This document shows, in pieces, positions 3,364 to 30,342 of a stretch of 32,000 nucleotides of DNA. The notes below the pieces were generated by a model. The model saw only the letters and a list, made by a program, of their open reading frames with translations. It made no database searches and was not told where the DNA came from. This DNA comes from Clostridiaceae bacterium Marseille-Q4145. GTDB taxonomy: Bacteria > Bacillota > Clostridia > Lachnospirales > Lachnospiraceae. Where the stretch lies: the NCBI GenBank assembly GCA_018223365.1, contig JAGTTP010000001.1:1341654-1373653 (forward strand), written 5' to 3'. Every line of letters begins with the position of its first letter. The stretch's first letter is position 1. A program made the translations under genes and the position numbers.

Positions 3364-3380
3364 AAAAGGAGGTGAACATA

Positions 3381-6502: not shown

Positions 6503-6557
6503 ACATAGCCGGACTGTGTTATGCAGTTAATTCTCAGCTATGGAAAGGAGGATTTTT

Positions 6558-11575: not shown

Positions 11576-11764
11576 ATGGGAAAAGAAGAAAAACGTGTCC
11601 TTACTTTGGACAAATACGAACACGGCGTTGTTGTCAACGCCCTGAATGAGATGCGTAATGATCTTTTGGAAGAACAGCGCTCCACCGATATTGTGGATGA
11701 GGTGCTGCTGAAAGCCATTGATGCCCCGATAAAAAAGGTCAAGTGCCGTGATGAAGCAAGATAA
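11576..11764 (+). CDS. Small hypothetical protein (62 aa) preceding the coupling protein
   Basis: ATG follows caggag. It is tightly packed in the operon and overlaps the T4CP start. Confidence 0.45.
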   Translation: MGKEEKRVLTLDKYEHGVVVNALNEMRNDLLEEQRSTDIVDEVLLKAIDAPIKKVKCRDEAR

Positions 11765-14865: not shown

Positions 14866-15282
14866 ATGGAAGTAAAAATCAACCGTGAAATTCGTAACTA
14901 CACGGAATCTATGTTTTTCGGACTGACCATGCGGCAATTTGTATTTTCGCTGTTGGCAGTCCTTGTGGCAGTAGGACTGTATTTTCTGCTTCACACCCAT
15001 GTGGGTACAGAAACGGTGTCCTGGATGTGTGTTCTCGGTGCTGCACCCTTTGCGGCGCTGGGGTTTGTGTCATACCACGGCATGAGCGCTGAACAGTTTC
15101 TGTGGGCATGGTTCCGCTCTGAAATTCTGGAACCGAAACGGCTTTATTTCAGACCGAACAATTATTATTACGAGATACTGAAAGATACCATTGCAGACCA
15201 CGAAAAAGAAATGTTGACCGGGAAGCCCGCAAATAAAGCAAAGAAGCGCAAGACCAGAAAGAAGGAGGAACATCATGCTTAA
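14866..15282 (+). CDS. PrgI/TcpE-like conjugation membrane protein
   Basis: MEVKINREIRNYTESMFFGLTMRQFVFSLLAVLVAVGLYF and two TM segments. It overlaps the VirB4 start. Confidence 0.65.
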   Translation: MEVKINREIRNYTESMFFGLTMRQFVFSLLAVLVAVGLYFLLHTHVGTETVSWMCVLGAAPFAALGFVSYHGMSAEQFLWAWFRSEILEPKRLYFRPNNYYYEILKDTIADHEKEMLTGKPANKAKKRKTRKKEEHHA

Positions 15283-17626
15283 AACACTCACGACACTATT
15301 CAAACAGGATAAAGAGCGATATACTGTGCCGCGCCGGGTGCAGGATGCTATCCCCATCAAACGTATTTGGAATGATGGTATCTTTCTTGCCGGGAATCGG
15401 TACTGCCGTACCTGGCGCTTTTCAGATATTAACTATCAGGTGGCCAGCGAAGATGACAAAAAGGTCATGTTTCTGGATTACTCCGAGGTGTTGAACAGTC
15501 TGGAGGCTGGTTCGGTTGCAAAGATCACAATCAACAATCGTCGGCTGAACCGGGCGAATTTTGAGCAGGATGTGCTCATGCGGATGGCAGCAGACTGCAG
15601 GGATAAATACCGTGTGGAGTACAATGGTGTGATTGTGGAGAAAGCCACCGCTGGTAACGGCATTGTGCAGGAAAAATACATCACCATCTCTGTCTGCAAA
15701 AAGAGCATTGAAGAGGCCAGAAGCTATTTCAACCGTGTTGGCGCGGACTTGAAAGCGCACTATGCGGCACTGGGGTCCAGGTGTGTAGAGCTGGATGCGA
15801 CGGAAAAACTGCGGGTTCTCCATGATTTCTATCGACAGGGCGAAGAGGTGGATTTTCACTTCGATGCACGGGATATGATGCGGAAGGGGCATGACTTCCG
15901 GGATTATATCTGCCCGGATTTCATCGAAAAACACAGCGACTATCTTATCCTGGGTAATAAATTTGCCCGTGTGCTGTACCTCAAAGACTATGCCAACTAT
16001 ATTAAGGATTCTTTTATTTCGGAGCTGACCGACTTGAACCGAAATATGATGCTCTCTCTGGACATCGTCCCAATCCCGATGGATGAAGCGGTACGGGAGA
16101 TTGAAAATCGACTGCTTGGCGTGGAAACCAATATTACCAACTGGCAGCGCCGCCAGAACGCAAACAACAATTTCTCCGCAGTCATTCCTTACGATATGGA
16201 GCTGCAGAGAAAGGAGAGCAAGGAGTTCCTGGACGATCTGACCGCCCGTGACCAACGTATGATGCTAGGTATTCTGACCATGGTGCTGACCGCTGACACA
16301 AAAGAGCAGCTCGACATGGATACCGAACAGATTCTCTCACTGGCCCGCCAGAAGATGTGCCAGATGGCGGTACTCAAATATCAGCAGATGGATGGACTGA
16401 ACACAGCTCTGCCGATTGGTACAAGAAAAATCAATACGTTCCGCACGCTCACCACGGAATCCCAGGCAGTGTTTATGCCCTTTAAGGTGCAGGAAATCCA
16501 GGACAAGGGCGGTATTTATTTTGGAGAAAATGCAATTTCTCATAATCTGATCCTGTGCAACCGCGAGAACCTTTTGAACCAGTCTGCATTTATTCTGGGC
16601 GTTCCCGGTTCGGGTAAGTCATTCGCGGCAAAAGAATTGATTGCGTTCCTGATTCTGAATACAGAGGACGATATTCTGATTTGTGACCCGGAATGCGAAA
16701 TGGTGCCGTTGGTGGAAGCTCTGGGCAGTGATATTGCATCTATTATCCACATGAAGGCCGGTGGCAGAGATTGCCTGAATGCCATGTATATGGTAGAGGG
16801 TTACGGCGAGAACAATCCCATCGTGGAGAAATCTCAGTTTATTATGTCCCTGGTGGAGCAGATCGACAAAAGCGGCATCGGTCCTCAGCACAAGTCTATT
16901 ATCGACCGCTGTGTAGCTGCGGTATATCAGGAAGCGGCAGAAACCGGCATTGTGCCGACGCTCTGCACGCTCCGTGAAAAACTGCTGGCACAGCCGGAGG
17001 AAAAAGCAAAGGAGATCGCACTGTCCCTGGAGCTTTATACAACTGGCTCACTGGACATCTTCGGACATACCAGCACGGTATCTCTGGATAAGCGTATTAC
17101 GGTTTTTGACATCCGTGATCTGGGCGCACAGCTTAAACCGGCGGGTCTGCTGGTCATTACTGATACGATCCTCAACCGTGTTACCTTGAATTGGAAAAAG
17201 GGCAAACGCACCCATGTATTTATTGACGAGTTCCATGTGGTTTTTGAGAATGAACACAGTGGAATCTTCTTTAATTCTGCATGGCGTCAGTTCCGTAAAC
17301 GCAATGCGTACCCGACGGCGATCACCCAAAACGTTGAATATCTTCTGGACTCTGTGCAGGCCAGTACCATGCTCTCCAATTCGGAGTTCATTATCATGCT
17401 GAATCAGGCGGCGTCCGACCGCGAAAAGCTGGCGAAACTTTTGAATATTTCCAGTGAACAGATGAGCTATGTCACAAATGCAGATGCAGGCTGTGGTCTG
17501 ATTAAATACGGCTCTGCCCTGGTTCCGTTTGTGAATCGGTTCCCACGGGATACGGAGCTTTATAAGCTGATGACAACAAAACCGGGTGAAGGTGTATTTG
17601 GCGGTGGAAAGGAGGTCGCAAACTAA
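15275..17626 (+). CDS. VirB4-like conjugal transfer ATPase
   Basis: 783 aa, Walker A GVPGSGKSF, Walker B THVFIDEFH, RBS aaggagg. Confidence 0.9.
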   Translation: MLKTLTTLFKQDKERYTVPRRVQDAIPIKRIWNDGIFLAGNRYCRTWRFSDINYQVASEDDKKVMFLDYSEVLNSLEAGSVAKITINNRRLNRANFEQDVLMRMAADCRDKYRVEYNGVIVEKATAGNGIVQEKYITISVCKKSIEEARSYFNRVGADLKAHYAALGSRCVELDATEKLRVLHDFYRQGEEVDFHFDARDMMRKGHDFRDYICPDFIEKHSDYLILGNKFARVLYLKDYANYIKDSFISELTDLNRNMMLSLDIVPIPMDEAVREIENRLLGVETNITNWQRRQNANNNFSAVIPYDMELQRKESKEFLDDLTARDQRMMLGILTMVLTADTKEQLDMDTEQILSLARQKMCQMAVLKYQQMDGLNTALPIGTRKINTFRTLTTESQAVFMPFKVQEIQDKGGIYFGENAISHNLILCNRENLLNQSAFILGVPGSGKSFAAKELIAFLILNTEDDILICDPECEMVPLVEALGSDIASIIHMKAGGRDCLNAMYMVEGYGENNPIVEKSQFIMSLVEQIDKSGIGPQHKSIIDRCVAAVYQEAAETGIVPTLCTLREKLLAQPEEKAKEIALSLELYTTGSLDIFGHTSTVSLDKRITVFDIRDLGAQLKPAGLLVITDTILNRVTLNWKKGKRTHVFIDEFHVVFENEHSGIFFNSAWRQFRKRNAYPTAITQNVEYLLDSVQASTMLSNSEFIIMLNQAASDREKLAKLLNISSEQMSYVTNADAGCGLIKYGSALVPFVNRFPRDTELYKLMTTKPGEGVFGGGKEVAN

Positions 17627-18052: not shown

Positions 18053-18868
18053 ATGAAGCAGAAACTTTTAATTTGTGGGGCGGCAGCATTTGCCGCTCTT
18101 TTTCTGTTCTCCGGTATTATGCTGGGACGGCAGCTTGCCGACCAGAAGCAGAGCACCGAGGCATTTGACAACATTGCGGATATGGTCATCAAGGAAGCCG
18201 AGCCGGATACAGCGCAGCCGTCGGAAAACAGCGGTGAAACAGCGCAGCCGCTCACACTGACTGCCTATGAAAAATATGCGTCTGTTTATGAGCAGAACCA
18301 TGATTTTGTCGGCTGGATTTCCATTGAGGGAACAAATGTAGATTACCCCGTTATGCAGACACCGAGTAATCCGAATTTCTATTTGAAGCACGCCTTTGAT
18401 CAATCGTACAGCAATTACGGTGTACCTTATGTTCAGGAAAATTGCGATTTGGAGCAGTCCGACAACGTGGTGATTTACGGGCATCACATGAATAACGGTT
18501 CCATGTTTGCAGATTTGTGTAAATACGAAAGTGAACATTTTTACCAGGAACATAAGACGATTCATTTTGACACGCTGACCGGGTTTGGAGAGTATGAGGT
18601 TGTTGCTGTTTTTAAGACAACAGCCTACTCTCAGGACGGCTTTCGATATTATCATTTTGTCGATGCTGCAGATGAAGCTGATTTTTCGGAGTTCATGGCA
18701 GAGTGTCAGTCCCTTGCACTTTATGATACAGGCGTGACTGCGGAATATGGAGATAAACTTCTGACGCTATCGACTTGTGAATACAGCCGCACAAATGGCA
18801 GAATGGTCATTGTCGCAAAGCTGTCAGCTCCGTCCGCTGAGGAGGTGGACGCCGATGCCGGATATTAA
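18053..18868 (+). CDS. srtB: Class B sortase
   Basis: N-terminal TM anchor, VDYPVMQTPSNPNFYLKH, catalytic His region VIYGHHM, and catalytic Cys motif LLTLSTCEY. Confidence 0.85.
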   Translation: MKQKLLICGAAAFAALFLFSGIMLGRQLADQKQSTEAFDNIADMVIKEAEPDTAQPSENSGETAQPLTLTAYEKYASVYEQNHDFVGWISIEGTNVDYPVMQTPSNPNFYLKHAFDQSYSNYGVPYVQENCDLEQSDNVVIYGHHMNNGSMFADLCKYESEHFYQEHKTIHFDTLTGFGEYEVVAVFKTTAYSQDGFRYYHFVDAADEADFSEFMAECQSLALYDTGVTAEYGDKLLTLSTCEYSRTNGRMVIVAKLSAPSAEEVDADAGY

Positions 18869-20612
18869 AACAAGAGAAAAAGTCAAAGGTACGGTCAAAA
18901 CACTGGATAAAGCCGCAGTTGCCGGAGAACGTATGAAAGCAGCCTATGTTCGTACCAAAGAAAAGGCTGAGCAAGGGATTCAGGCCAAGGAAGATTCTCC
19001 AGAGGAATATGCGGCTGATCGTATCTCAGCAGGTTCGGAAACTGTGGTGCATGAAGCTGTCCGCCAATTTGATAAGCAAGGTCGCAAGGGTGTCCGGGAA
19101 ACAAAAGAGAACATTTCTAAGGCAAAGCAGTATTTTGAACAGCGCAGAGCAGACCAGCCGAAAAAGCAGGCGCAAAAAAGAGCAGCAGAGAATGTACGCC
19201 GTTCTGCAGATGTGAAAAAACAGTCTGTAAAAAGTACAGAGTATGGGTCGTGGCCCATCAAAACCGTAGAGCGTGGTGAAAAGCAAATCCGGCGAGCTGC
19301 CAGCTCTGCAGGCAAGGGCACCATTAAAACTACACAGAAATCTGTAAAGACTGCAGAGCATACCGCGCGAACAACGATCAAGACCAGTCAGAATGCGGTG
19401 AAAACGGCTCAGAAATCCGCCCAGACAGCGGCAAAGGCTTCGCAGCGTGCGGCCCAGGCAGCTCGTTCCACTGCAAAAGCAACCGCCGATGGCATAAAAG
19501 CGGCGGCGAAAGCTACGGCATCTGCTGTAAAGGCAATTATTGCGGCAACAAAGACGTTGATTGCCGCAATCGCTGCGGGTGGATGGATCGCTATGGTGGT
19601 TATCGTCATTATTTGCTTGATTGGACTGATCGTCGGCTCGTGCTTTGGTATTTTCTTTTCTGGAGAGGACACCGGCACCGGACAGACTATGCAGACTGTG
19701 GTGCGGGAGATCAATGCAGACTATGAAGCGCAGATTGAATCCATCAAAGGAAGCTGTTCTTATGATGTGTTGGAAATGTCCGGTTCCCGTGCTGTCTGGC
19801 CGGAAGTCCTATCCGTTTATGCGGTCAAAACTACCACTGATCCAGATGAGCCGCAGGAGGTTGCTTCGATGGATGATGCCAAGAAAGTAATTCTCAAAGA
19901 TATTTTCTGGCAGATGAATGAGATTTCTTCCCGGACGGAGAGCAGCATAGAAACGGTCATTGATGAAACGGACGATGGGAACGGAAATATCGTTGAAACC
20001 TCGACCACTGTTACCAGAACTACATTATATATTACAGTCAGCCATAAGACCGCAGAGGAAATGGCTGCACAATATGCGTTCAGCACAGAGCAGCGACAGC
20101 AATTATCGGAATTGCTTGCCAGTGAAAATAACTCTCTCTGGTCAGCGGTGCTGTACGGTATTTCTGTGGGTGATGGCGAGATCGTATCGGTGGCATTGTC
20201 GCAGGTTGGCAATGTAGGCGGTCAGCCTTATTGGTCCTGGTACGGATTCAATTCTCGCGTGGAGTGGTGCGCCTGCTTTGTTTCCTGGTGTGCCAATGAA
20301 TGCGGCTATATCGACAGCGGCGTTATTCCGAAATTTGCGGGGTGTGTCAACGGTGTGCAATGGTTCAAGGACCGTGGCCAATGGCAGGACCGTAACTATG
20401 AACCTTCTGCCGGTCAGATCATTTTCTTTGATTGGGATAATAAAGGCTCATCCGGTCCGCAGGATGGTCAGTCCGATCATGTCGGTGTCGTGGAGAAATG
20501 CGAAAATAGCATTGTCTACACTATCGAGGGCAATTCCGGTGATAGCTGCCGCCAGCGCCAATATCCTGTTGGACATTATGAGATTCTTGGATACGGTGTT
20601 CCGGCGTACTAA
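18855..20612 (+). CDS. Conjugation-associated cell-wall hydrolase with C-terminal CHAP domain
   Basis: ATG 18855 follows gaggaggtgga. It has an Ala/Lys-rich N-terminus, a TM segment WIAMVVIVIICLIGLIVGSCFGIFF, CHAP Cys VEWCACFVSWCANECGY and His SDHVGVV. Confidence 0.8.
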   Translation: MPDIKTREKVKGTVKTLDKAAVAGERMKAAYVRTKEKAEQGIQAKEDSPEEYAADRISAGSETVVHEAVRQFDKQGRKGVRETKENISKAKQYFEQRRADQPKKQAQKRAAENVRRSADVKKQSVKSTEYGSWPIKTVERGEKQIRRAASSAGKGTIKTTQKSVKTAEHTARTTIKTSQNAVKTAQKSAQTAAKASQRAAQAARSTAKATADGIKAAAKATASAVKAIIAATKTLIAAIAAGGWIAMVVIVIICLIGLIVGSCFGIFFSGEDTGTGQTMQTVVREINADYEAQIESIKGSCSYDVLEMSGSRAVWPEVLSVYAVKTTTDPDEPQEVASMDDAKKVILKDIFWQMNEISSRTESSIETVIDETDDGNGNIVETSTTVTRTTLYITVSHKTAEEMAAQYAFSTEQRQQLSELLASENNSLWSAVLYGISVGDGEIVSVALSQVGNVGGQPYWSWYGFNSRVEWCACFVSWCANECGYIDSGVIPKFAGCVNGVQWFKDRGQWQDRNYEPSAGQIIFFDWDNKGSSGPQDGQSDHVGVVEKCENSIVYTIEGNSGDSCRQRQYPVGHYEILGYGVPAY

Positions 20613-20616
20613 AAGT

Positions 20617-20638
20617 CAGCCGCCAAATACGGCGGCTG
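20617..20638 (+). terminator. Hairpin after the CHAP gene (no T-run)
   Basis: CAGCCGCC aaatac GGCGGCTG, 5 nt after the stop. Confidence 0.35.
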
Positions 20639-20676
20639 GTACATATTATAAGGGACTTGCTGCCAAGTCCGCTTTC

Positions 20677-20717
20677 AGGAAAATAGGCGGTGGCGGAATA
20701 ATCCGTCACCGCCTATT
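20677..20717 (-). terminator. Rho-independent terminator of the minus-strand surface-protein gene
   Basis: A 16-bp stem AATAGGCGGTGGCGGA / TCCGTCACCGCCTATT (one G-U) with loop ataa. On the minus strand it is followed by TTTTC. Confidence 0.7.
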
Positions 20718-20751
20718 GTGTTTAGGCTATTTCGATTTTGGAAGCGTTGAC

Positions 20752-23700
20752 TTATTCAGCCTCGGATTCCTTTCTCTTTTTGACTCTTACGCCCAGCACG
20801 GTCAGAACACCGCCGCTGACGAACAGAGCAGCCAGCCAACCGATGAGGTTGCTGCTGTCACCGGTCCGAGGAGACTTGGTGGAGTCGTCCTTTCCGGGCT
20901 TAGCGGTGTTATTATCACCGCTGCCTGTATTGCCGGTGCTGCCGCTGTCGGAGAGCTTGGCGATGACCGTATTCTCGCTGCGCTTAGCGCCGCAAACGGT
21001 GCATTCCTCGTGCTTGATGCCGGTGGCCTTCTTGGTAGCGGCCTTGTCGATCACCCACTGGAAGCTGTGTGCTGCCGTGTCGGCCTTGTCGCGACACTCA
21101 CACTCATGCCAGTGATTGGTGTCGTCATACTTCCAATCCGTGCCGTAGCTGTGGGTATGAGTGCTGCCTGTTGCAGGGATCGTTGCGGTTTCAAGCACCT
21201 TCTTGCAGACGGTGCATTCCTTATGCTTAGCGCCTTCTGCGGTTTCGGTAGCTGCCGTGTCAACGATCCACTCGCTGGCGTTGTGAGCCGCTACATCGGC
21301 CTTGTCGCCGCACTCGCACTCATGCCAGTGATTGGTGTCGTCATACTTCCAATCTGTGCCATAGCTGTGGGTATGTGTTGCGGGGATCGTTGCGGTTTCA
21401 AGCACCTTCTTGCAGACGGTGCATTCCTTATGCTTAGCGCCTTCTGCGGTTTCGGTAGCTGCCGTGTCAACGATCCACTCGCTGGCGCTGTGAGCCGCTA
21501 CATCGGCCTTGTCGCCGCACTCGCACTCATGCCAGTGATTGGTGTCGTCATACTTCCAATCTGTGCCGTAGCTGTGGGTATGTGTTGCGGGGATCGTTGC
21601 GGTTTCAAGCACCTTCTTGCAAATGGTGCATTCCTTATGCTTAGCGCCTTCTGCGGTTTCGGTAGCTGCCGTGTCAACGATCCACTCGCTGGCGCTGTGA
21701 GCCGCTACATCGGCCTTGTCGCCGCACTCGCACTCATGCCAGTGATCGGTGTCATTATACTTCCAATCCTCGCCATAGCTGTGGGTATGATCGCTGCCTG
21801 TTGCGGGGATCGTTGCGGTTTCAAGCACCTTCTTGCAGACGGTGCATTCCTTATGCTTAGCGCCTTCTGCGGTTTCGGTAGCTGCCGTGTCAACGATCCA
21901 CTCGCTGGCGCTGTGAGCCGCTACATCGGCTTTGTCGCCGCACTCGCACTCATGCCAGTGATTGGTGTCGTCATACTTCCAATCTGTGCCATAGCTGTGG
22001 GTATGTGTTGCGGGGATCGTTGCGGTTTCAAGCACCTTCTTGCAGACGGTGCATTCCTTATGCTTAGCGCCTTCTGCGGTTTCGGTAGCTGCCGTGTCAA
22101 TGATCCACTCGCTGGCGCTGTGAGCCTCAATATCGGCCTTGTCGCCGCACTCGCACTCATGCCAGTGATTGGTGTCGTCATACTTCCAATCTGTGCCGTA
22201 GCTGTGGGTATGAGTGCTGCCTGTTGCGGTGAACATTACCTTGAACTGGACAGAGCCGTCGGGATCTTTCGACAGCAGGTCCACGACCTTGCCGTTTACA
22301 TTCAGCTTCATATCGTCGGCGAAGGTCACGCCCTCCTTCGGCTCCAGATAAACGATGGCCGTATATTCCTGGCCGGCCACAAACGCCGTGTTGCCGCTCA
22401 GCATGCCGGACCACCACATCATGGCCTTTTTGACCTTATCCTTATTGTCGCCGAGCACGGGGATGTCCACGGTGCCCTTGGGCTTCTCTCCGGCCACCGG
22501 TGCTGCGATCTGCACCGCCGCCTCCGTCACATAGTTGGGGTCTTCGGCGGCCTTTGCGGGGAAGTTCACATAGACCAGCAGGTTCTTTCCATCGCTGTCA
22601 CTCTTGACCTGCCAAACCTGGCCGTCGTTGATGGTCACGTCAGCCGTGGAGATACCCTCTGCAATGGTGTAGCCCGGGTTGATCGGGAACTGATAGACCA
22701 CGGAATAGTCCTTATCCTTGTCATAGGCGGTGGGTGTCGAGCCGCTGCCGTCCGTATTCAGGCCCTCACGGAGAAAACGGGCCGGATTTCCCATGCCGCC
22801 GGTGGGGGTATAGCTCTGGCAGTCGAAGTCTTCCAGCTTCGTGCGCTCCGCCTTGGGCTTCACCTGGATGGTCACGGTCTTGACCACCTGCCCCGCCGTG
22901 GAGGCTGCCGGGAAGTTCACATAGACCAGCAGGTTCTTTCCATCGCTGTCACTGCTGACCTTCCAGACCTGACCGTCGTTGATGGTCACGTCAGCCGTGG
23001 AGATACCCTCTGCAATGGTGTAGCCCGGGTTGATCGGGAACTGATAGACCACGGAATAGTCCTTATCCTTGTCATAGGCGGTGGGTGTCGAGCCGCTGCC
23101 GTCCGTATTCAGGCCCTCACGGAGAAAACGGGCCGGATTTCCCATGCCGCCGGTGGGGGTATAGCTCTGGCAGTCGAAGTCTTCCAGCTTCGTGCGCTCC
23201 GCCTTGGGCTTCACCTGGATGGTCACGGTCTTGACCACCTGCCCCGCCGTGGAGGCTGCCGGGAAGTTCACATAGACCAGCAGGTTCTTTCCATCGCTGT
23301 CACTGCTGACCTTCCAGACCTGACCGTCGTTGATGGTCACGTCAGCCGTGGAGATACCCTCTGCAATGGTGTAGCCCGGGTTGATCGGGAACTGATAGAC
23401 CACGGAATAGTCCTTATCCTTGTCATAGGCGGTGGGTGTCGAGCCGCTGCCGTCCGTATTCAGGCCCTCACGGAGAAAACGGGCCGGATTTCCCATGCCG
23501 CCGGTGGGGGTATAGCTCTGGCAGTTGAAGTCTTCCAGCTTCGTGCGCTCCGCCTTGGGCTTCACCTGGATGGTCACGGTCTTGACCTCCTGTCCCGCTG
23601 CGGAGGCTGCCGGGATGTTCACAAAAACACGAATCGCGTTTGACAGGCCGCCATAGTCATCTGCTATCCAGAAGTCGCCGCCGGTGACCGTCACATTGTC

Positions 23701-24888
23701 CTTTAGATTGTCCCTTAGATTGTCTGAAAAACTAAAACCTGCTTTTGCAAGAAAGAGATACATTACCGTATAACTCTGATTCGGGTCATACGGTGTGTTT
23801 TTGTCTTCGATCTTATCCGATGTATTCTCCCAGCCCTTATAAACGATGAAATTAGATAGAGTCATTTTGTTAGATGGACTGTAACTACACGCCAAATCCG
23901 AGATCGTCTCGCGCGTGATAAGAGGTTCTACAGTCAAGCTAACCGTATTGATCTCTTTACTGATATCATCAGTAATATTGACACTGTCTGTCAGCGAGCG
24001 CACGTCTGCGCTCAGCGGGGTATCATCTGACAGCTTATAGATTTTCTGGTTGGTGCCAAGATAATCCGAAATATGTTTTGTGTTGCCCTGGTGCAGATAA
24101 ATGCTATGTCCATCCGTTACGCCATCGGTAGTATGAATGATGCTATTCTCAATCGTCAAAGTGGCATCTTCGTCAATGAAGATTGTTCCGCTGCTATTTT
24201 TCGTTATGTTAGTTCCCGGAAGAACGGAACTTTTTACGATAGCATTTTTTATGTTTGTTGTGCCTTTGATAGCATAAACTGCACCTCCATAGGAAACGCC
24301 GCCGGTTTTTCCTTCCAGTGTAGCGTTATCAATATTCACAGTGCCGCCAGCGTTGTATACTGCTATGCCATAAGTAGCTAAATTGTAGGCGCCGGTCAGT
24401 GTAACGCCACCGGATATGTTTACTGTTGCATCATTTTCGACATCGACAACAGCATTAGTCGCACCTCCGTTTGAAGTTGCCTCGAAGGTCAGCGAACCTT
24501 TTCCTTTAATATCCAGACGTTCACCAGATCCATTGATATATAATAAGCTTCTTACGACGCTGCCACTCGCAGCGCCTGTAACCGTAACAGTACCATCTAC
24601 AATGAGCGTCTTTTGCCTTAGGATTTTAATAGCTGAATCGTAAGCATCCAGTTTCAAAACTTTTGTAATGTTGGTTCCGCTAGGAACTTTGATGTACTGC
24701 ATCCCCAATCCCACGGTCTCCTTTTCCAGTTCGGCCTTTAGCTCATCAAAGGTCGTGACGATATAGGGGTCGCTCGCTGTACCGCTGCCTGTCGTTGCAC
24801 CGCTGCCATCTGCTGCAAAGGCCATTGTGGGGAACAGACCCACCACCATGACGAGGCAGAGCAGGATGCTCAGTATCTGTTTTCTCAT
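20752..24888 (-). CDS. Giant secreted, sortase-anchored surface protein (putative adhesin): beta-helix-like N-terminal region, 3 x 117-aa repeats, 6 x 69/72-aa Cys/His repeats, SPRTG sorting signal
   Basis: RBS aaggag. Signal peptide MRKQILSILLCLVMVVGLFPTMAFA. GGAVYA/NATL-type repeats suggest a parallel beta-helix. The C-terminus has SPRTG (20860-20874), then hydrophobic LIGWLAALFVSGGVLTVLGV, then RVKKRK. Confidence 0.85.
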   Translation of the reverse strand: MRKQILSILLCLVMVVGLFPTMAFAADGSGATTGSGTASDPYIVTTFDELKAELEKETVGLGMQYIKVPSGTNITKVLKLDAYDSAIKILRQKTLIVDGTVTVTGAASGSVVRSLLYINGSGERLDIKGKGSLTFEATSNGGATNAVVDVENDATVNISGGVTLTGAYNLATYGIAVYNAGGTVNIDNATLEGKTGGVSYGGAVYAIKGTTNIKNAIVKSSVLPGTNITKNSSGTIFIDEDATLTIENSIIHTTDGVTDGHSIYLHQGNTKHISDYLGTNQKIYKLSDDTPLSADVRSLTDSVNITDDISKEINTVSLTVEPLITRETISDLACSYSPSNKMTLSNFIVYKGWENTSDKIEDKNTPYDPNQSYTVMYLFLAKAGFSFSDNLRDNLKDNVTVTGGDFWIADDYGGLSNAIRVFVNIPAASAAGQEVKTVTIQVKPKAERTKLEDFNCQSYTPTGGMGNPARFLREGLNTDGSGSTPTAYDKDKDYSVVYQFPINPGYTIAEGISTADVTINDGQVWKVSSDSDGKNLLVYVNFPAASTAGQVVKTVTIQVKPKAERTKLEDFDCQSYTPTGGMGNPARFLREGLNTDGSGSTPTAYDKDKDYSVVYQFPINPGYTIAEGISTADVTINDGQVWKVSSDSDGKNLLVYVNFPAASTAGQVVKTVTIQVKPKAERTKLEDFDCQSYTPTGGMGNPARFLREGLNTDGSGSTPTAYDKDKDYSVVYQFPINPGYTIAEGISTADVTINDGQVWQVKSDSDGKNLLVYVNFPAKAAEDPNYVTEAAVQIAAPVAGEKPKGTVDIPVLGDNKDKVKKAMMWWSGMLSGNTAFVAGQEYTAIVYLEPKEGVTFADDMKLNVNGKVVDLLSKDPDGSVQFKVMFTATGSTHTHSYGTDWKYDDTNHWHECECGDKADIEAHSASEWIIDTAATETAEGAKHKECTVCKKVLETATIPATHTHSYGTDWKYDDTNHWHECECGDKADVAAHSASEWIVDTAATETAEGAKHKECTVCKKVLETATIPATGSDHTHSYGEDWKYNDTDHWHECECGDKADVAAHSASEWIVDTAATETAEGAKHKECTICKKVLETATIPATHTHSYGTDWKYDDTNHWHECECGDKADVAAHSASEWIVDTAATETAEGAKHKECTVCKKVLETATIPATHTHSYGTDWKYDDTNHWHECECGDKADVAAHNASEWIVDTAATETAEGAKHKECTVCKKVLETATIPATGSTHTHSYGTDWKYDDTNHWHECECRDKADTAAHSFQWVIDKAATKKATGIKHEECTVCGAKRSENTVIAKLSDSGSTGNTGSGDNNTAKPGKDDSTKSPRTGDSSNLIGWLAALFVSGGVLTVLGVRVKKRKESEAE
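20959..22215 (-). repeat. Six in-frame tandem repeats (207 or 216 bp) encoding a Cys/His-rich module
   Basis: The landmark cactcgcactcatgccagtgat recurs at 21095, 21311, 21518, 21725, 21941 and 22148. The unit is THTHSYGTDWKYDDTNHWHECECGDKADVAAHSASEWIVDTAATETAEGAKHKECTVCKKVLETATIPA. The C-proximal copy is the most diverged. Confidence 0.9.
22561..23613 (-). repeat. Three in-frame 351-bp (117-aa) tandem repeats, nearly identical at the DNA level
   Basis: gaagttcacatagaccagcagg recurs at 22561, 22912 and 23263. Copies 2 and 3 appear identical by eye from the unit start until one substitution near the 3' end (cagtcgaag vs cagttgaag), after which copy 3 diverges. Confidence 0.9.
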
Positions 24889-24929: not shown

Positions 24930-25316
24930 TTAAACGCTGTCGATTACCGAAGCAAAGTAGTTTTCGGACACCGAGCCGAAGAGAAAAGCGTCTATCAGAC
25001 CCTCGCGCTTTGCCCGCAGTACCTTTTCGGTCAACTCACCGTCTGTGTCGTCATCCACAAAGAGAATGACACGGCAGTTTTCAGTGTTCCTTTTTACCTT
25101 GTCACGGATTGCCATTCGTTCATTGAACATCCATGGCGAATACGCCTTGACCTCCATTAAAAGCACATCCGGTCGATGCGTTTTGCACCACTCGGCGGTT
25201 GCGTCCGGCGACTCGGAGATCACAACCTGGCAATCATCCAATTTTTGCATCAGCATTCGCTCCATGGTGTGCGCATGGATATCGCTCTGAATGTCCAGAA
25301 CGATTTTTTTCATCAT
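24930..25316 (-). CDS. Stand-alone receiver-like (pseudo-receiver) protein
   Basis: Alternating beta-alpha pattern of CheY-like length (128 aa). By eye-alignment the phospho-acceptor position reads DVLLMEV (Glu, not Asp), the second acidic-pocket Asp is Ile (VLDIQS), and no conserved Thr/Lys is seen at the usual sites. It lies 41 nt upstream of the surface-protein gene on the same strand. Confidence 0.5.
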   Translation of the reverse strand: MMKKIVLDIQSDIHAHTMERMLMQKLDDCQVVISESPDATAEWCKTHRPDVLLMEVKAYSPWMFNERMAIRDKVKRNTENCRVILFVDDDTDGELTEKVLRAKREGLIDAFLFGSVSENYFASVIDSV

Positions 25317-25534
25317 TCATCACCACCTTCTAAAAGCACAACCCTAATATTACATTATCTATTGTACGGATTTTTTGGTGCTTGTCACTGGCACTTGTGC
25401 CAGTAACAGAAGGAAAATTTCGATTTTTTCAAAATTTTTTTGCCTTTTGAGCGTGAAAAACCCCTTGACCATACTGAACTGCTCCAGTTTGTGCGGACAG
25501 CACAAAAAGCCCCCCTATGTAGGCGATATGAAGT

Positions 25535-26392
25535 TTAAGCGGAGTGGCGCAGCGTTAGCGGCGCCACTCCAGTCTTTGTCTGGATGCGCTCGTGGTTGTA
25601 GAAATGAATATAACGATCAATCATTTCATTGGCTTCATTGAAGGACACCGGTTTGTGTCTGTAAATACACTCGGTTTTAAGAATGGAGAAAAAATTTTCT
25701 GCCATCGCATTGTCATAGCAGTTCCCGCGTCTTGACATGGACGGAGTTATACCGTATTTTTGAGTTAGCTTGAAATATGCTTGGGATGTATATTGAAAGC
25801 CCTGGTCGCTGTGGAGGTGCAACTCCGCAGCGACCCTCTTTTTCTCTTTGCGCATAGCAAGGCGGATCGTGTCCAACACAAGGTTAACCGTTTGTTCTGT
25901 GCCAGTCTTATAAGCGACAATGCTGTTATCGTATAGATCCCGGATCATTGACAGATACAGAACGCCTTGCTTTGTGTGTATATACGAAATGTCTGTGACC
26001 CATTTTCTGTTAGGCTTGTCAGTATGAAACTGCCTGTTGAGCAGGTTCTCATAGCGATGCAGCTGCTGTCCCATGTTGACCCACTTTCTTCGACGGCGGA
26101 TTTCAGACAACAGATCGTATTTTTTCATCACACGCAGAATGGTTTTGGGGTTGTAATGTGTGCCTTTGGATTCCAACGCAAGACACATCCTGCGATATCC
26201 GTACGTGTTGAAGCTTTTTTTCTGCTGCTGACGGATTGCTGCCGCCAGTTCCGCATCCTTTTCCGGTTTTCCAATCCTGTGGACAAAATCATAGTACCCG
26301 CTTCGTGATACGCCAAAAAATCGACACATCGTGGATACTGAATATTCCGACCGATGACGATGGATAACAGCGTACTTTGCCCGTGGCCTCAC
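25535..26392 (-). CDS. IS3-family transposase OrfB (DDE/rve catalytic domain)
   Basis: DDE context KWVTDISY, LHSDQGFQY, CYDNAMAENFF. It is in the -1 frame relative to orfA and overlaps it as GTGA. Confidence 0.9.
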   Translation of the reverse strand: MRPRAKYAVIHRHRSEYSVSTMCRFFGVSRSGYYDFVHRIGKPEKDAELAAAIRQQQKKSFNTYGYRRMCLALESKGTHYNPKTILRVMKKYDLLSEIRRRRKWVNMGQQLHRYENLLNRQFHTDKPNRKWVTDISYIHTKQGVLYLSMIRDLYDNSIVAYKTGTEQTVNLVLDTIRLAMRKEKKRVAAELHLHSDQGFQYTSQAYFKLTQKYGITPSMSRRGNCYDNAMAENFFSILKTECIYRHKPVSFNEANEMIDRYIHFYNHERIQTKTGVAPLTLRHSA

Positions 26393-26676
26393 TTCCTTTC
26401 TATGGATTGCAGAAAATCCCGCAACAGTTCATTCTCCATTTTCAGTCGCTTGTTTTCGTACTTGTACTCGGCTAATGTTTTTGCAGGCTTACGGCCTCGC
26501 TGCTTAGGAATACCTTCTGCATTCCGCCTACGTTCTCTTTTCAGCAGTTCCTTTACTACGTACTTGTCCTTAAATCCGTAGTATTCGGCGATCTCCCGCT
26601 GCGTTTTCCCTGCTTCTATCATTGCTTTAATCTCTGGATACAGCAACTGTACATGGGTATAATCTCTTTTTGACAT
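26389..26676 (-). CDS. IS3-family transposase OrfA (HTH plus leucine-zipper-like)
   Basis: HTH GKTQREIAEYYGFKDKYVVKELL. The C-terminal region LAEYKYENKRLKMENELLRDFL is heptad-like. The orfB frame is open for about 36 nt upstream of the orfA stop, consistent with -1 frameshifting, but no canonical A AAA AAG was seen. Confidence 0.85.
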   Translation of the reverse strand: MSKRDYTHVQLLYPEIKAMIEAGKTQREIAEYYGFKDKYVVKELLKRERRRNAEGIPKQRGRKPAKTLAEYKYENKRLKMENELLRDFLQSIERK

Positions 26677-26780
26677 AACAGCACCCCCTGATGTAGTTCT
26701 ATTTTCCTACATCAGGGGGTGTTTTGTCTATTGTCCGTTTTTAATGGTTCTGTTCATACAGCCAAGGGGTTCAATTTCTC

Positions 26781-27410
26781 TTATTCGTCTTTCAAGGTGG
26801 TTACCATGAGCTTGTTTTCAATGGCGGTTGCAACCAGCGATTCTCTGTTTTCAAAGCCGCCCTTTTCCACCATATCGTCCAGGTTCCAGCGAACGCCGTT
26901 TTTGGAGATACCCAGCTTATCAGCGATTTCCTGATAGGTAAAGCCCTTTATATAAAGGCGCAGGATGTCTAACTGCCGGGGCGAGAAGGCATCGGACATC
27001 GTACCCTCCATTTCAATGGCCGGTGCGGTATCGGGAAAGACCTTTTCCCCTGCCAGAGTGCGCTTTACCACGCTCATCAGTTCCTCCGTGCCGTGGTCCT
27101 TATACCACAGGCTGTCGGCGGCGCCCATTTTGGCTCGTTCCAACACCTGCGGATCGACAAGCGAGGTAGCCACAACGATTTTAATCTGCGGGAAAGCCTT
27201 TTTGATACGCTCTGCGGCGGCAAGACCGGAGTGCTTGTGCTGCGTCTGCACATCCATAAGGACGAGCTTTACGGTGGCGTCGCAATGCTTTTCCGCTTCA
27301 AAGGCGTCACGGAAAACGCCGACAAGATAAAACTCACCGTCTGCCGTAAGACGATTGACAAAGTGCTTTTGGATGTATAAATCATCCTCTACAAGTATGG
27401 TGTTAATCAT
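26781..27410 (-). CDS. NarL/LuxR-family response regulator
   Basis: Canonical receiver residues (VEDD, LVLMDV, VVATS, WYKD) and a LuxR-type HTH LDILRLYIKGFTYQEIADKLGISKNGVRWNL. Confidence 0.9.
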   Translation of the reverse strand: MINTILVEDDLYIQKHFVNRLTADGEFYLVGVFRDAFEAEKHCDATVKLVLMDVQTQHKHSGLAAAERIKKAFPQIKIVVATSLVDPQVLERAKMGAADSLWYKDHGTEELMSVVKRTLAGEKVFPDTAPAIEMEGTMSDAFSPRQLDILRLYIKGFTYQEIADKLGISKNGVRWNLDDMVEKGGFENRESLVATAIENKLMVTTLKDE

Positions 27411-28657
27411 AGGCTGATCTCCTTTGCGGGAATCGTAATCAGAAGAGCAAATCGTGGATTATGCGAAATATGCATTTCGCCGCCGGAGCTTTCAATACTG
27501 CGGCGAAGTGTTGACAGGCCGCTGCCTTCCTTTATCGGCTTTGTGGGTATTTTGCCGTTGTTGGTTATGGTAACATCATAGCGTTCGCCTCGCTGGGCAA
27601 TGCGGATATATACCTCATTTCCGTCTGCGTGCTTGATGCAGTTGGTCACGCACTCCTTGGCGGCGGCAACGGTCAGCTCCTCGGCTACGGTATCACGAGG
27701 CAGGTAGCCATCGATTTTTACAGCTACGCCAAGCTGTCGGGCGGTTCTTTTAGCCTCGTCCATTGTGCTGACAGAGGTGACACGGTTGCTTGCCAGCATA
27801 CCGATGGCATTTTGCAGTGCCTCAAGCTTTTGCTCGGTATTCTCACCGCTGTCTATGATGTCACGGATGGTCAGGAGGCTTCGGCCGATGGTATCGTGAA
27901 TATAGATCTTCAGGTCAAGGCTTTCCTTCTCCTTGACATCGTCCTCCATGCGGGCGTACATCTTTCTGAGCTTTTGATTGACTTCTGCCAGTTCTTCATT
28001 TATTTTCTCTTGCTTTTGGTAGCCGTTATACAGATCGGTTACATTATGCGCCGTTATCTGCTGCCAGCGGTCATCGCCGTCCACAGCGATATTCTGTGTG
28101 CGGAACTGCCAGACGGTCTTGTCGGGCAGGATATAGCAATCATCCTTGACGGTTACGGATTTGTCCGGCAGCGTTAAAGCATTTTCCATATCGCTTTTGA
28201 TTTGCGGCTCCTGGCCGCAAAGGACAAAGGACAGCCTGCGCATACGGTTGTTGCATAGGATGATCCTGCCGTTCGGGTCGGCAAAGCAGATGCCCATGGG
28301 TAGCTTATCGGTTGCTTCCTTAATGGAGAACGGCGAGAGCTCGTTCTTTTTACGGCGGTATTCCCGCGGCAGAGCAATGGCAAAGTGAACTGCCGCAAGA
28401 AAAATGGCAGAGGCAAATATCAGCCACGGTGCGCCGAGCAGAAATGCGTCCCCGATATTATCGGGATCTGCCTGGGAAACGGAGAACAGTAACGGGATCA
28501 TCACCGCTATAACCGCCAGGCTCAGCAGGCTGCGCACCGGCTTATTGCTGCGGAGAAGCTGATATATAAACAGCCCAATTTCAAGGACAATCTCCACAAG
28601 CATAATAAACGGCAGCATGGTCTGCCAAAATTCAGAAAGGGAAGAAAACGCACTCAT
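27407..28657 (-). CDS. Sensor histidine kinase (HisKA_3-type DHp plus HATPase)
   Basis: Three N-terminal TM segments, a PAS-like middle region, H-box KIYIHDTIGRSLL, N-box ECVTNCIKHA, G-box EGSGLSTL. A 4-nt overlap with the response-regulator gene. Confidence 0.85.
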   Translation of the reverse strand: MSAFSSLSEFWQTMLPFIMLVEIVLEIGLFIYQLLRSNKPVRSLLSLAVIAVMIPLLFSVSQADPDNIGDAFLLGAPWLIFASAIFLAAVHFAIALPREYRRKKNELSPFSIKEATDKLPMGICFADPNGRIILCNNRMRRLSFVLCGQEPQIKSDMENALTLPDKSVTVKDDCYILPDKTVWQFRTQNIAVDGDDRWQQITAHNVTDLYNGYQKQEKINEELAEVNQKLRKMYARMEDDVKEKESLDLKIYIHDTIGRSLLTIRDIIDSGENTEQKLEALQNAIGMLASNRVTSVSTMDEAKRTARQLGVAVKIDGYLPRDTVAEELTVAAAKECVTNCIKHADGNEVYIRIAQRGERYDVTITNNGKIPTKPIKEGSGLSTLRRSIESSGGEMHISHNPRFALLITIPAKEISL

Positions 28658-30342
28658 TTCCCATCACCTTCTTTCACTTCAAACACAAGGTGCTGATATT
28701 CCTCGTCATCCTCTTTTTCATAGCGAATACCATCTCCGCTTACGAAAGCCGAAAGGTCGGCTTTGCAGCACACATTCAGCGACAAGCGCAAGCCATCTGC
28801 CTTTATGAGACTTACCTGTATGCCTGTTAAATTCAAAATGTCGGCTTCAATAACCGATTCGTAAAAATCAAATACAGCGGTCGCTGTTTTGCCGGAGAGC
28901 ATGGAAAGAGACTCGTCCACATAAAGTGAGCTGCGGACTCCCAACAGCTTCAGCGTTTGGAGGGACTCGTTGAAGGCACGGTGGAGTTCCGTTGCCGCTA
29001 TTTTAATATCTCGGTCGGTAAGGAGCGTCAGATGCTTGCGGCGTTTAATGTAGCTGCACAGCACGGCAATCTCGGCAAGGAGCGTTTTGGCGCTGTCGGG
29101 GTCGGTGCTTGAGATTCGGCGGTATTCCTTAGTGAGCTCTGCAATGCGGTCTATCTGCGTCTGCGTAGCGGAACGCAGGAGATCATACAAACGGTTTTGC
29201 TCCTCCACTTTGCGGCGCTTGGCTTCACGCTTGTATTCATAACGGAGTATTTCGTTTCGGTCGGCAAGCTCGTCTGCAAGAAGCTCGGAGTCCTCCTTGA
29301 TATCGCGCAGAACCGACACATCCTCCGTCCACACAGCATAGCCGCCGTCAATGGGCATGGTGTGAACGGTCAAGCCGCCGCCCAGCGTGACCGGGCTTTG
29401 CTCGGCTTTTTTCATCGTTTCCTTTGAGATAGGCGCAGTATTTACAGCTGCATACCGAACGGTAAAGTCCTTGTCGGTGATCTCTGCCGATGTGCCGACA
29501 GAGGAGGCAAATAAGTCCACATAACGGCTGTTTGAATGTATATATCCGCAGGCGATGCAGAACTCAAAGGTCAGAATGTACATCACACTTTGGAACGCAG
29601 CAATATCGCCGAACAAGTGGAGCAGCCAATCCACGCCCACATAGTAAAGTGCGCTGTAAACTATCGCCAGCAGCATAGGAACAACGGGCAGAAAGTGGAG
29701 CCTTCCTTTTTGCACACGGCATTTGAAAAACATAATAACGAGTGCGGCTAAGGCGCACATCACCTGCCAGCCCACACTAATGAAGTAGCCTACCGAGTAG
29801 CCGTTGTTTTTGTCCGTCCACACGGCGGCGTCCTTCGGAAAGGTAAATACGAATTGGTGCAGGTCATTTGTGAGTACGAGCAGAAGCAATACACCGGAGA
29901 TGATCCACAGAACCGACATTCCCCTGGGAAATTTGTATTCGTCCGGTTTCCCTAATGACATGGCAATCAGCAGCGCCAGCATAGGCACAAACAGCATGGG
30001 AAGATAGAACAGATACCACAGGTACCGGACGGCATCCGGCTGCCAAAATATAAAATACTTTGCCGAACGGACTACCATCCAGATGATGAGCAACACTGCG
30101 GTGCCCGTCATAAACCAGCATACCTGCTTTTGCACGATCCGCTGACGGACGGAGAGCCCCCAGGCGGCGAACAGGCCGATATAGATAAAGCTGCGCAGAT
30201 AGGAAAACAGCATCGGGTAGAAGCTGCCCCTGCCCACAATTCGGAAGCAATATGCCAATATCACGGTAAGAACAGCGATGCCGCTTGTTATGATAATATT
30301 CTTTTTCTGTTTGGTCATAAACAGCCCCCGTTTCGCCTTCAT
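28654..30342 (-). CDS. Polytopic membrane sensor-like protein with a kinase-like but apparently His-less/ATP-lid-less C-terminal region
   Basis: About 10 hydrophobic segments are followed by a coiled region. There EQNRLYDLLRSATQTQ occupies the place of a HisKA_3 H-box (Arg where His is expected, by eye-alignment). No N/G1/G2 boxes were seen in the last approximately 130 aa. A 4-nt overlap with the downstream kinase. The start is ATG 30342 or ATG 30318. Confidence 0.55.
   Translation of the reverse strand: MKAKRGLFMTKQKKNIIITSGIAVLTVILAYCFRIVGRGSFYPMLFSYLRSFIYIGLFAAWGLSVRQRIVQKQVCWFMTGTAVLLIIWMVVRSAKYFIFWQPDAVRYLWYLFYLPMLFVPMLALLIAMSLGKPDEYKFPRGMSVLWIISGVLLLLVLTNDLHQFVFTFPKDAAVWTDKNNGYSVGYFISVGWQVMCALAALVIMFFKCRVQKGRLHFLPVVPMLLAIVYSALYYVGVDWLLHLFGDIAAFQSVMYILTFEFCIACGYIHSNSRYVDLFASSVGTSAEITDKDFTVRYAAVNTAPISKETMKKAEQSPVTLGGGLTVHTMPIDGGYAVWTEDVSVLRDIKEDSELLADELADRNEILRYEYKREAKRRKVEEQNRLYDLLRSATQTQIDRIAELTKEYRRISSTDPDSAKTLLAEIAVLCSYIKRRKHLTLLTDRDIKIAATELHRAFNESLQTLKLLGVRSSLYVDESLSMLSGKTATAVFDFYESVIEADILNLTGIQVSLIKADGLRLSLNVCCKADLSAFVSGDGIRYEKEDDEEYQHLVFEVKEGDGK

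Follow-up and report, generated by a model that had tools for sequence, protein, structure and literature searches.

A tandem array of IgA protease ZBD-type Cys/His units as a candidate zinc-stapled stalk in a surface protein of Clostridiaceae bacterium Marseille-Q4145

The surface-protein gene and its six Cys/His units

The window analysed here is a stretch of 32,000 nucleotides from Clostridiaceae bacterium Marseille-Q4145 (assembly GCA_018223365.1, contig JAGTTP010000001.1, positions 1,341,654 to 1,373,653). On its minus strand lies the gene of a sortase-anchored surface protein of 1378 residues, which carries six tandem copies of a Cys/His-rich unit just before the wall anchor. The gene was assigned from the list of open reading frames (ORFs) and from 183 homologues, and its product is 100% identical to the NCBI entry 'hypothetical protein KE530_06970' of the same bacterium. 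In the following list of its parts, the signal peptide, the linker and the anchor elements were read from the sequence and the six units were delimited in the sequence. The head was assigned with AlphaFold2 and Foldseek, the copies of ~117 residues with Tandem Repeats Finder (TRF) and phmmer self-hits, and the short domain by its conservation in homologues.

20752-24888, minus strand: gene of the sortase-anchored surface protein, 1378 residues
24814-24888, minus strand: signal peptide MRKQILSILLCLVMVVGLFPTMAFA, residues 1-25, near-identical in homologue P0005
23884-24813, minus strand: head domain, residues 26-335, predicted right-handed beta-helix
22471-23883, minus strand: four copies of a domain of ~117 residues (residues 336-806)
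22216-22470, minus strand: short domain, residues 807-891, directly before the Cys/His array, without family
22009-22215, minus strand: unit 1, residues 892-960, 69 residues, internal type
21793-22008, minus strand: unit 2, residues 961-1032, 72 residues, ending in IPATGS, internal type
21586-21792, minus strand: unit 3, residues 1033-1101, 69 residues, internal type, the most diverged internal unit (12-15 nucleotides from the others)
21379-21585, minus strand: unit 4, residues 1102-1170, 69 residues, internal type, modelled together with unit 5
21163-21378, minus strand: unit 5, residues 1171-1242, 72 residues, internal type, modelled together with unit 4
20959-21162, minus strand: unit 6, residues 1243-1310, 68 residues, terminal 'cap' subtype, AAHSFQWVIDK...KHEECTVCGAKRSENTVI
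20755-20958, minus strand: linker (residues 1311-1338), SPRTG, membrane helix and basic tail
20860-20874, minus strand: SPRTG sorting motif, residues 1339-1343
20788-20847, minus strand: hydrophobic membrane helix, residues 1348-1367
End of the same segment, minus strand: basic tail RVKKRKESEAE, residues 1368-1378

An earlier note on this DNA had described six tandem units at 20959-22215, each of 69-72 residues with 4 Cys and about 7 His in a HWHECECG-x8-H pattern. These coordinates match residues 892-1310 exactly, and the HWHECEC motif occurs six times (at residues 908, 977, 1049, 1118, 1187 and 1259), each time preceded by HTH. The 4 Cys are borne out, but the number of His is 6, the spacer after the motif has 7 residues instead of 8, and the lengths of the units are 69, 72, 69, 69, 72 and 68 residues. 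TRF reported the array with a period of 207, 5.4 copies, 93% matches and a score of 1950, which is far beyond chance. It also gave a two-unit period of 423 nucleotides, because the unit lengths alternate between 69 and 72 residues. The array contains 24 of the 29 Cys of the protein, together with 36 His, in 419 residues, and all six units carry H2, H4, H17, C21, C23, H32, C55 and C58. The near-identity of the five distal copies noticed earlier holds at the nucleotide level, since units 1-5 differ by 2-15 of 201 nucleotides (92.5-99% identity) and units 2, 4 and 5 from one another by only 2. The anchor-proximal copy is diverged as described, with 71-74% DNA identity between unit 6 and units 1-5.

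Is the copy number real? Tandem repeats of high identity are often mis-assembled from short reads (PMC9704523), and repeats of 207 bp at 99% identity might have been collapsed or expanded to give six copies. However, the contig is 2.17 Mb long, the units carry distinct diagnostic substitutions in an ordered 69/72-residue pattern, and the array and the anchor are read in one unbroken frame. We regard an assembly artefact as highly improbable.

Note that the linkers after units 2 and 5 (~21793-21810 and 21163-21180) read T-I-P-A-T-G-S, which resembles the sortase motif xPxTG. IPKTG is found in the same inter-unit linker of some relatives, and many family members have such a motif. At these IPATG motifs the protein may alternatively be processed by sortase or cleaved, which would give anchored forms of shorter length, or the resemblance could be coincidence.

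In front of the array, the AlphaFold2 model of the head has a pLDDT (predicted local distance difference test) of 82.7 and a predicted template modelling score (pTM) of 0.83. Its top Foldseek matches in the PDB are all beta-helix proteins (HK620 tailspike, pectate lyase, pectin methylesterase and alginate lyase); the matches are weak (E >= 0.014), and a right-handed beta-helix is the likely fold class of the model. A PDB sequence search with the N-terminal 865 residues found no match. The copies of the ~117-residue domain behind the head comprise one diverged copy (residues 336-455) and three near-identical ones (residues 456-806), and TRF reports here a second high-identity array of the gene (period 351, 3.0 copies, 98% matches, 22555-23623). 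This domain is without family assignment, and a single unpaired Cys stands at or just before the start of each copy (C334, C456, C573 and C690). The short domain of residues 807-891 starts where the 32-residue connecting segment after the third 117-residue repeat ends; homologues keep residues 795-891 as one block, so the conserved part starts ~12 residues before residue 807.

Behind the array, a wall-spanning linker of 28 residues is of low complexity and rich in Ser, Gly, Asn, Thr, Asp and Lys. The signature of covalent C-terminal wall attachment is present, namely SPRTG, the hydrophobic helix and the basic tail, with a class B sortase gene 1.9 kb away. Pfam Gram_pos_anchor matches the protein weakly (E 0.023), and the motif is SPQTG in the homologue of locus L001 and in the immunoglobulin A (IgA) protease discussed below, against SPRTG here. 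Antisense to both repeat arrays there is a plus-strand ORF at 20278-23643 (1121 residues). Most likely this ORF is an artefact that arises from repeats free of stop codons, because it is the minus-strand product that matches a database entry exactly, has hundreds of homologues and is given a confident fold.

Identity of the module and its candidate metal ligands

Does the unit belong to a named domain family? The earlier note could not place it, and for Pfam and NCBIfam this stands, as neither has a model for the Cys/His unit when searched with the whole protein. Pfam searches with seven multi-unit family members also returned no unit model, only fragmentary zinc-ribbon or rubredoxin knuckle matches that add up. 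For the classical zinc-finger and zinc-ribbon families in Pfam, no single stretch passes the gathering score, the sums being made of sub-threshold or zero stretches only. The polyhistidine-triad and G5/E families are absent among the Pfam matches up to E = 1. In the literature, however, the module is already present. Searched with phmmer against PDB sequences, a single unit matched 9qa6_A, the IgA protease of Thomasclavelia ramosa, twice (E 3e-20 and 1e-17), and a profile search of the PDB found 9qa6_A at E 1e-39 and no other entry. The matched regions are subdomains II and III of ZBD1, and ZBD2. The module goes by the names ZBD1 (II+III)/ZBD2 (PMC12237041), CTD2/CTD4 (PMC12415215) and beta3/beta4/beta6 (PMC12402451). 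By every sequence-level test the Cys/His units are tandem copies of this ZBD (II+III) / CTD2-CTD4 module, which is known, but recently and thinly described, and discussed for one protein only.

The three papers describe these domains of the IgA protease from AlphaFold models, and the experimental maps stop at residue 876 (PMC12237041, PMC12415215, PMC12402451). The ZBD subdomains are elongated three-stranded antiparallel sheets arranged end to end, with Cys/His zinc sites predicted at their interfaces (PMC12237041); the predicted ligands are two His and two Cys, and in one case three Cys and one His. Two independent papers of 2025 thus predict two Cys2His2-type zinc sites in the homologous domains (PMC12237041, PMC12415215), and small-angle X-ray scattering (SAXS) of isolated CTD2 fits a fully extended rod (PMC12415215). 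The ligand pattern H..H..W..HWHxCxC..H..W..C..C is common to these domains and the units of the window. Both are predicted to be all-beta, with short antiparallel strands in two blocks per unit, which can be read from the models as an end-to-end pair of three-stranded sheets; both lack a fold relative in the PDB and stand just before an SPxTG sortase anchor. Their arrangement differs: the IgA protease has two single copies, 45% identical and with an Ig-like domain between them, behind an M64 protease, whereas in the window gene six units follow one another without interruption behind the predicted beta-helix head, and the DNA of five of them is 92.5-99% identical. A CxxxxC knuckle and an additional subdomain I set ZBD1 apart from the window units. 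The second site of ZBD2 is reported with 3 Cys and 1 His, while unit 6 has the 4 standard Cys only.

Conservation was evaluated over 649 unique, near-full-length units from ~240 diverse proteins. The candidate ligands are H4 (97%), H17 (100%), C21 (90%), C23 (97%), H32 (99%), C55 (100%) and C58 (99%), and W10, W18 and G49 are conserved at 90-96%. H2 is present in 73% of the units; H19 (64%) and H52 (43%) are not conserved. Two ligand swaps were found in this set. When C21 is missing, a His stands at position 25, two residues after C23, in 49 of 68 units, compared with 5 of 581 otherwise (Fisher 6e-52; 13 proteins), and the motif becomes HWHxxxCxH in place of HWHxCxC. Similarly, of 100 junctions at which H2 is missing from the following unit, 70 have Cys or His at residue 45 of the unit before it ('ATC' or 'ATH'), compared with 1 of 355 junctions with H2 (Fisher 5e-57). 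This second swap is seen in 25 proteins, and 14 of them carry both junction types in one array. Both swaps recur in many clusters that are less than 50% identical to each other.

The two swaps speak for metal sites with four ligands, two in each unit and placed where sheets meet, and not for disulfides. The alternative is that the cysteines form disulfides in an EGF-like stabilised repeat that binds no metal, the His being conserved for another reason. The protein is extracellular, its four Cys per unit form two close pairs, CxC and CxxC, and constructs of the IgA protease with these domains are polydisperse without dithiothreitol, so their thiols are reactive. But C21 can give way to Ala, Ser or Thr while a His that stands two residues after C23 compensates, and a change from Cys to His at a shifted position suits a coordination sphere and not a disulfide partner. 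Moreover, four His are as conserved as the Cys, CxC and CxxC in one turn have the geometry of knuckles and not that of usual disulfide pairs, the host bacteria live in the gut as strict anaerobes, and the published models or structures of the IgA protease contain no disulfides. The chance of a disulfide-stabilised repeat appears very small. The earlier suggestion of one or two metal sites per unit is therefore supported by the 90-100% conservation of the ligands, the two swaps and the published site predictions, with binding itself a prediction. Loss of the Cys and His in homologues, which would speak against it, is not what the 649 units show, and the Pfam, NCBIfam and PDB searches did not map the unit to a known structural repeat free of metal ligation.

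Which residues would form each site? We infer an assignment from the published up-and-down topology and the strand positions of the AlphaFold2 model. One end of sheet A would have H4, from the start of strand 1, and the C21/C23 turn; its other end would have H17 and H32, and the near end of sheet B the C55/C58 turn. Site X would be made of H17, H32, C55 and C58, all conserved at 99% or more, and would tie sheet A to sheet B within one unit. Site Y would be made of H4, C21 (or H25), C23 and a fourth ligand, either H2 in the linker or, in other family members, residue 45 from the unit before; the exchange between these last two would place it at the junction of consecutive units. H19 was considered as the alternative to H2 as fourth ligand and rejected, since the two show no association (odds ratio 0.83, p 0.38). 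The full ligand set is present in all six units, and this gives 12 candidate sites in the array. Zinc ribbons and knuckles, such as the C-terminal domain of TFIIS, TFIIB and rubredoxin-like proteins, also have CxC/CxxC knuckles at beta-hairpin turns. However, their ligands lie within one ribbon, while the ligand sets here would be shared by neighbouring sheets, and in an extracellular protein.

Another explanation is that the array is a metal store, scavenger or sensor at the cell surface, with 12 sites that bind and release zinc or another metal. Such an array would recall the streptococcal polyhistidine-triad proteins or the zinc-dependent assembly of Aap/SasG, and the folding of the stalk or the adhesion between cells would follow the zinc supply in the gut. 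The 24 Cys and 36 His of the array fit such a role, and site Y could be exchangeable, since its fourth ligand varies, or is lacking, in some units. However, fully protein-coordinated Cys2His2 sites are typically tight and structural and leave no free position for bridging (the argument of PMC12415215), and Pfam gives no histidine-triad or G5 match. The conserved gene cassette of this locus has no metal-uptake genes either; Feo genes do occur at the homologous locus L002, on the far side of a recombinase, and neither the window nor L001 has them. A metal store is, in our judgement, quite unlikely. The Pht proteins of streptococci share with the window protein the extracellular, His-rich, zinc-binding repeats on a Gram-positive surface (zinc being predicted here), but they have HxxHxH motifs without Cys, serve zinc acquisition, and have no sequence or Pfam relation to the window units. 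The zinc-dependent G5-E repeats of Aap/SasG likewise build a stalk from flat beta-sheets on the cell surface, with a role for zinc. The zinc of Aap links two protomers, at His/Asp/Glu sites whose coordination is open, whereas the sites of the window units would be intramolecular, fully Cys/His and, by the argument of PMC12415215, structural, and Pfam finds no G5 in them.

Predicted fold, stalk role and variation of the array

The earlier note had proposed an AlphaFold check. Units 4-5 were modelled with AlphaFold2 from an alignment with 39 diverse tandem pairs, and the two-unit model is all-beta with a mean pLDDT of 93.8 and a pTM of 0.54. DSSP places strands at E18-23, 28-33, 40-43, 51-57 and 63-69, after which the pattern repeats. 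Foldseek found no fold match for the model in the PDB; the best hits, with E 0.019 and TM 0.19, are beta-propellers. The two halves of the unit, compared with hhalign, gave a probability of 0.7%, which means no detectable homology between them.

What might the array do? The best reading, and in our view a probable one, is a zinc-stapled stalk of the Periscope type. Each unit of ~70 residues would consist of two small antiparallel sheets of three strands each, which follow one another end to end and have hardly any hydrophobic core. A tetrahedral site, most likely for Zn(II), would staple every junction between sheets, and each unit would have two such sites and the array 12. The result would be a thin rod of 12 core-less sheets between the SPRTG/class B sortase anchor on one side and the beta-helix head with the four 117-residue domains on the other, and it would hold the head away from the wall. 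At ~3.7 nm per sheet, as in the published 110-Å, three-sheet model of ZBD1, the rod would by extrapolation be ~40 nm long. The near-identical units in the DNA would let the array lengthen or shorten by homologous recombination. In this scheme we infer which metal occupies the sites and to what extent, exactly which ligands make up each site, how stiff and how long the rod is, and that its length varies between strains.

The comparison with Periscope Proteins (SasG/Aap G5-E, Rib, SHIRT; PMC9704523) has two sides. Like them, the window protein is sortase-anchored with an N-terminal functional region, has tandem repeats of more than 50 residues at very high DNA identity (the Cys/His units, and also the 3 x 351 nucleotides), is predicted to form a thin G5-like rod of single core-less beta-sheets, and has homologues that differ in repeat number. 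Unlike them, its repeat has a fold unrelated to any listed Periscope fold, and Cys/His metal staples would give the stability that interdomain interfaces give there. Periscope Proteins are defined by length variation between strains, whereas here the variation is known only as 1-6 units among distant homologues. As to the rod shape, the model of the window units combines the high pLDDT with the pTM given above, and the published SAXS rod is that of the homologous CTD2.

Several points weigh against the stapled stalk. The Fisher p-values ignore the relatedness of units within one protein and so overstate independence, and the ligand sets rest on strand topology and covariation, not on measured distances. 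Site Y is not always obviously four-coordinate, because both H2 and H19 are missing in 48 of 617 units and because position 45 has no Cys or His in 30 of the 100 H2-less junctions. With a pTM of only 0.54, rigidity between the sheets is not established, and SAXS coupled to size-exclusion chromatography shows flexible hinges between whole domains of the IgA protease. The published work on the module consists of models and SAXS. The IgA protease can also do without its ZBD/BB8 domains in vitro, where they even hamper cleavage. As for variation of length, no relative above ~87% identity was found in the proteins, plasmids and metagenomes searched; the plasmid search gave a single match of 311 bp, from Vescimonas, and a metagenome scan with the head gave relatives at ~70% identity only.

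An extension of the stapled stalk is that it might be gated by zinc. Every junction needs its metal staple, and a hydrophobic core is missing from the sheets, so that a shortage of zinc, such as host calprotectin would impose, would make the 12-site rod unfold or soften, and the head would be retracted or released. We consider this extension improbable. If true, it would couple surface display and adhesion directly to metal availability.

There is a further question, why does unit 6 differ from its neighbours? Its type (...AAHSFQWVIDKAATKKATGIKHEECTVCGAKRSENTVI) recurs as the last unit in many homologues and is the same subtype as ZBD2 of the IgA protease. The DNA of unit 6 is 93% identical to the terminal unit of homologue P0005 and ~73% to its own neighbours. 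Because it is closer to that terminal unit than to the units next to it, unit 6 is, judged from the sequences, an old and conserved array-terminating subtype and not a drifted or decayed copy. Two homologues, P0005 (residues 877-945) and P0022 (residues 895-963), have a cap-type unit further upstream, followed by a non-repeat domain of ~165 residues and then by more units, a layout that mirrors ZBD1-BB8-ZBD2 of the IgA protease. It seems that any run of units is closed by a cap-type unit.

The earlier note had also read the near-identity of the other copies as very recent expansion or ongoing gene conversion. The gaps of 2 nucleotides among units 2, 4 and 5 and the repeated 69/72-residue pairs support this. 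Part of the similarity, by contrast, does not come from expansion within the gene: the internal units of the window gene and of P0005 are only 10-23 nucleotides apart although the heads are ~68% identical, and because the two are different genes this part appears to be conservation or exchange of the stalk between genes. The signal peptide and the tail are also nearly identical between the window gene and P0005. In general, the signal peptide, the Cys/His units, the cap unit and the C-terminal tail are near-identical between genes whose heads are 38-72% identical, including the gene of L001 (10001-14173). The gene thus looks like a mosaic with conserved ends and a variable middle, and this pattern suggests exchange of cassettes, or strong constraint on the ends with a diversifying middle. 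The number of units varies from 1 to 6 among homologues with the same head, and the window gene has the most.

Genomic setting and breadth of the family

The genes around the surface gene are as follows. The regulator, HATPase_c and HisKA_7TM genes were assigned with Pfam.

101-2584: SNF2 helicase
3372-4996: DUF6088 and AbiEii (AbiE pair)
5034-6014: Mrr-like nuclease
6540-7520: Toprim/DUF3991 protein
8458-9900: relaxase
Listed between the relaxase and the VirD4-type gene: DUF3801 protein
11748-13550: VirD4-type coupling protein
14866-15282: PrgI
15275-17626: VirB4-like ATPase
Listed between the VirB4-like ATPase and the class B sortase: DUF6075 protein
18053-18868, plus strand: class B sortase (Pfam Sortase E 6e-16; TIGR03064 srtB 153.1 bits against a cut-off of 153.75)
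18777-20612: CHAP hydrolase with a membrane segment
24930-25316, minus strand: ORF of 128 residues directly upstream of the surface gene, without family, at the same position in homologous loci
25535-26392, minus strand: transposase ORF of the IS3 family (rve, HTH_21), between the regulator gene and the small ORF
26781-27410, minus strand: LuxR/GerE response regulator
27407-28657, minus strand: HATPase_c protein
28654-30342, minus strand: HisKA_7TM protein

The window is part of an integrated conjugative element (genes at 101-20612), because relaxase, VirD4-type, VirB4-like and PrgI genes flank the surface gene. Locus L002 is on a mobile element too; L001 is flanked by housekeeping genes. A cassette of HisKA_7TM, HATPase_c and LuxR/GerE regulator genes, a protein of ~127 residues and the surface protein has the same order in the window (24930-30342, minus strand), in L001 (5835-14173) and in L002 (5667-15617), which suggests that the surface protein is under dedicated, two-component-like control. 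After the surface gene, L001 and L002 both have a gene for a DUF5640 protein, which is followed by a sortase gene in L002 only. The sortase is thus downstream in L002 and nearby on the opposite strand in the window, and none adjoins the gene in L001. The class B sortase at 18053-18868 is likely the anchoring enzyme.

The window differs from the other two loci in the gap between the regulator gene and the small ORF, which measures 1464 bp here and ~180 bp in L001 and L002 and contains the transposase ORF. This insertion sequence may uncouple the surface protein from its regulators. An inverted-repeat search for the ends of the insertion sequence gave no clear terminal repeats. At 25388-25361 there is a promoter-like site; promoter-like matches are no more numerous than in shuffled sequence. 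A terminator-like hairpin is found at 20638-20617, downstream of the stop codon of the surface gene.

How common is the module? A word-indexed homologue search with a single unit gave 3 proteins only, and an exhaustive search of representatives was required. To this end, 1.84 billion cluster representatives (clusters at 50% identity) were scanned with one unit by HMMER, which found at least 8,446 proteins at E <= 1e-3 and 2,941 at E <= 1e-10, with up to 33 matched stretches per protein. A degenerate DNA motif for HWHECxCGxK matched at least 120 stretches in species-representative genomes. The hosts among the matches listed, mostly gut metagenome-assembled genomes, are Oscillospiraceae, Ruminococcus, Lachnospiraceae, Christensenellaceae, Acutalibacteraceae, Collinsella and Bacilli of the Anaeroplasma/Acholeplasmatales type; the family is also found in Bacilli of the Erysipelotrichales type. 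One motif match (L042) is on a 2.9-kb contig binned as Muribaculaceae (Bacteroidota), by horizontal transfer or by binning error. The JGI name of homologue P0065 is 'RNA polymerase subunit RPABC4/transcription elongation factor Spt4', which is probably a mis-annotation caused by the zinc knuckles.

Three homologues, P0126 (3152 residues, 29 copies), P0130 and P0141, have arrays made only of the second-sheet type (H..W..ATC..G..H..C..C). The extra Cys at position 45 would give sites of 3 Cys and 1 His in these arrays, and the real building block may be the sheet of ~35 residues rather than the unit of 70.

The heads and anchors seen with the module are M64 protease, beta-helix, RCC1 repeats, CBM_X2, and InlB B-repeats with SLH domains. 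Among the 146 best-ranked unit-bearing representatives, the last unit of sortase-type members ends a median of 65 residues from the C-terminus. Then might the units themselves be the functional part, and not a passive stalk? They might bind a ligand on host or partner cells repeatedly, by avidity, for example as a mating-pair adhesin. A region of type IV secretion and relaxase genes ends with this gene, repeat regions sometimes have roles beyond scaffolding (Periscope review, PMC9704523), the authors of the PNAS paper leave extra functions of CTD2/CTD4 open (PMC12415215), and the internal units are unusually conserved between genes with diverged heads. On the other hand, the same module occurs behind the very different heads just listed and in SLH-anchored proteins, the array adjoins the anchor and not the tip, and the conserved residues are putative ligands, Trp and Gly rather than a surface patch. 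The surface-protein cassette is also found away from conjugation genes, as in L001. We think that a binding role is unlikely, and a stapled stalk remains the preferred reading.

The authors of the PNAS paper had proposed CTD2/CTD4 as periscope domains and noted that a high-identity tandem array was missing (PMC12415215). The window locus supplies the canonical array of this kind for the CTD2/CTD4-type module. Also new here are the evidence from conservation and the two swaps for metal ligands at the sheet junctions, and the distinction between internal and array-terminating units. The module is very common, in at least 8,446 clusters at 50% identity, yet neither Pfam nor NCBIfam has a model for it and no structure of it has been solved by experiment, and the window array is the cleanest natural construct for testing the zinc-staple idea. 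If that idea is true, core-less sheets aligned by zinc staples would be a new structural principle for bacterial surface stalks, and it would give an annotation to thousands of 'hypothetical' surface proteins of gut bacteria, including IgA proteases that are therapeutic candidates.

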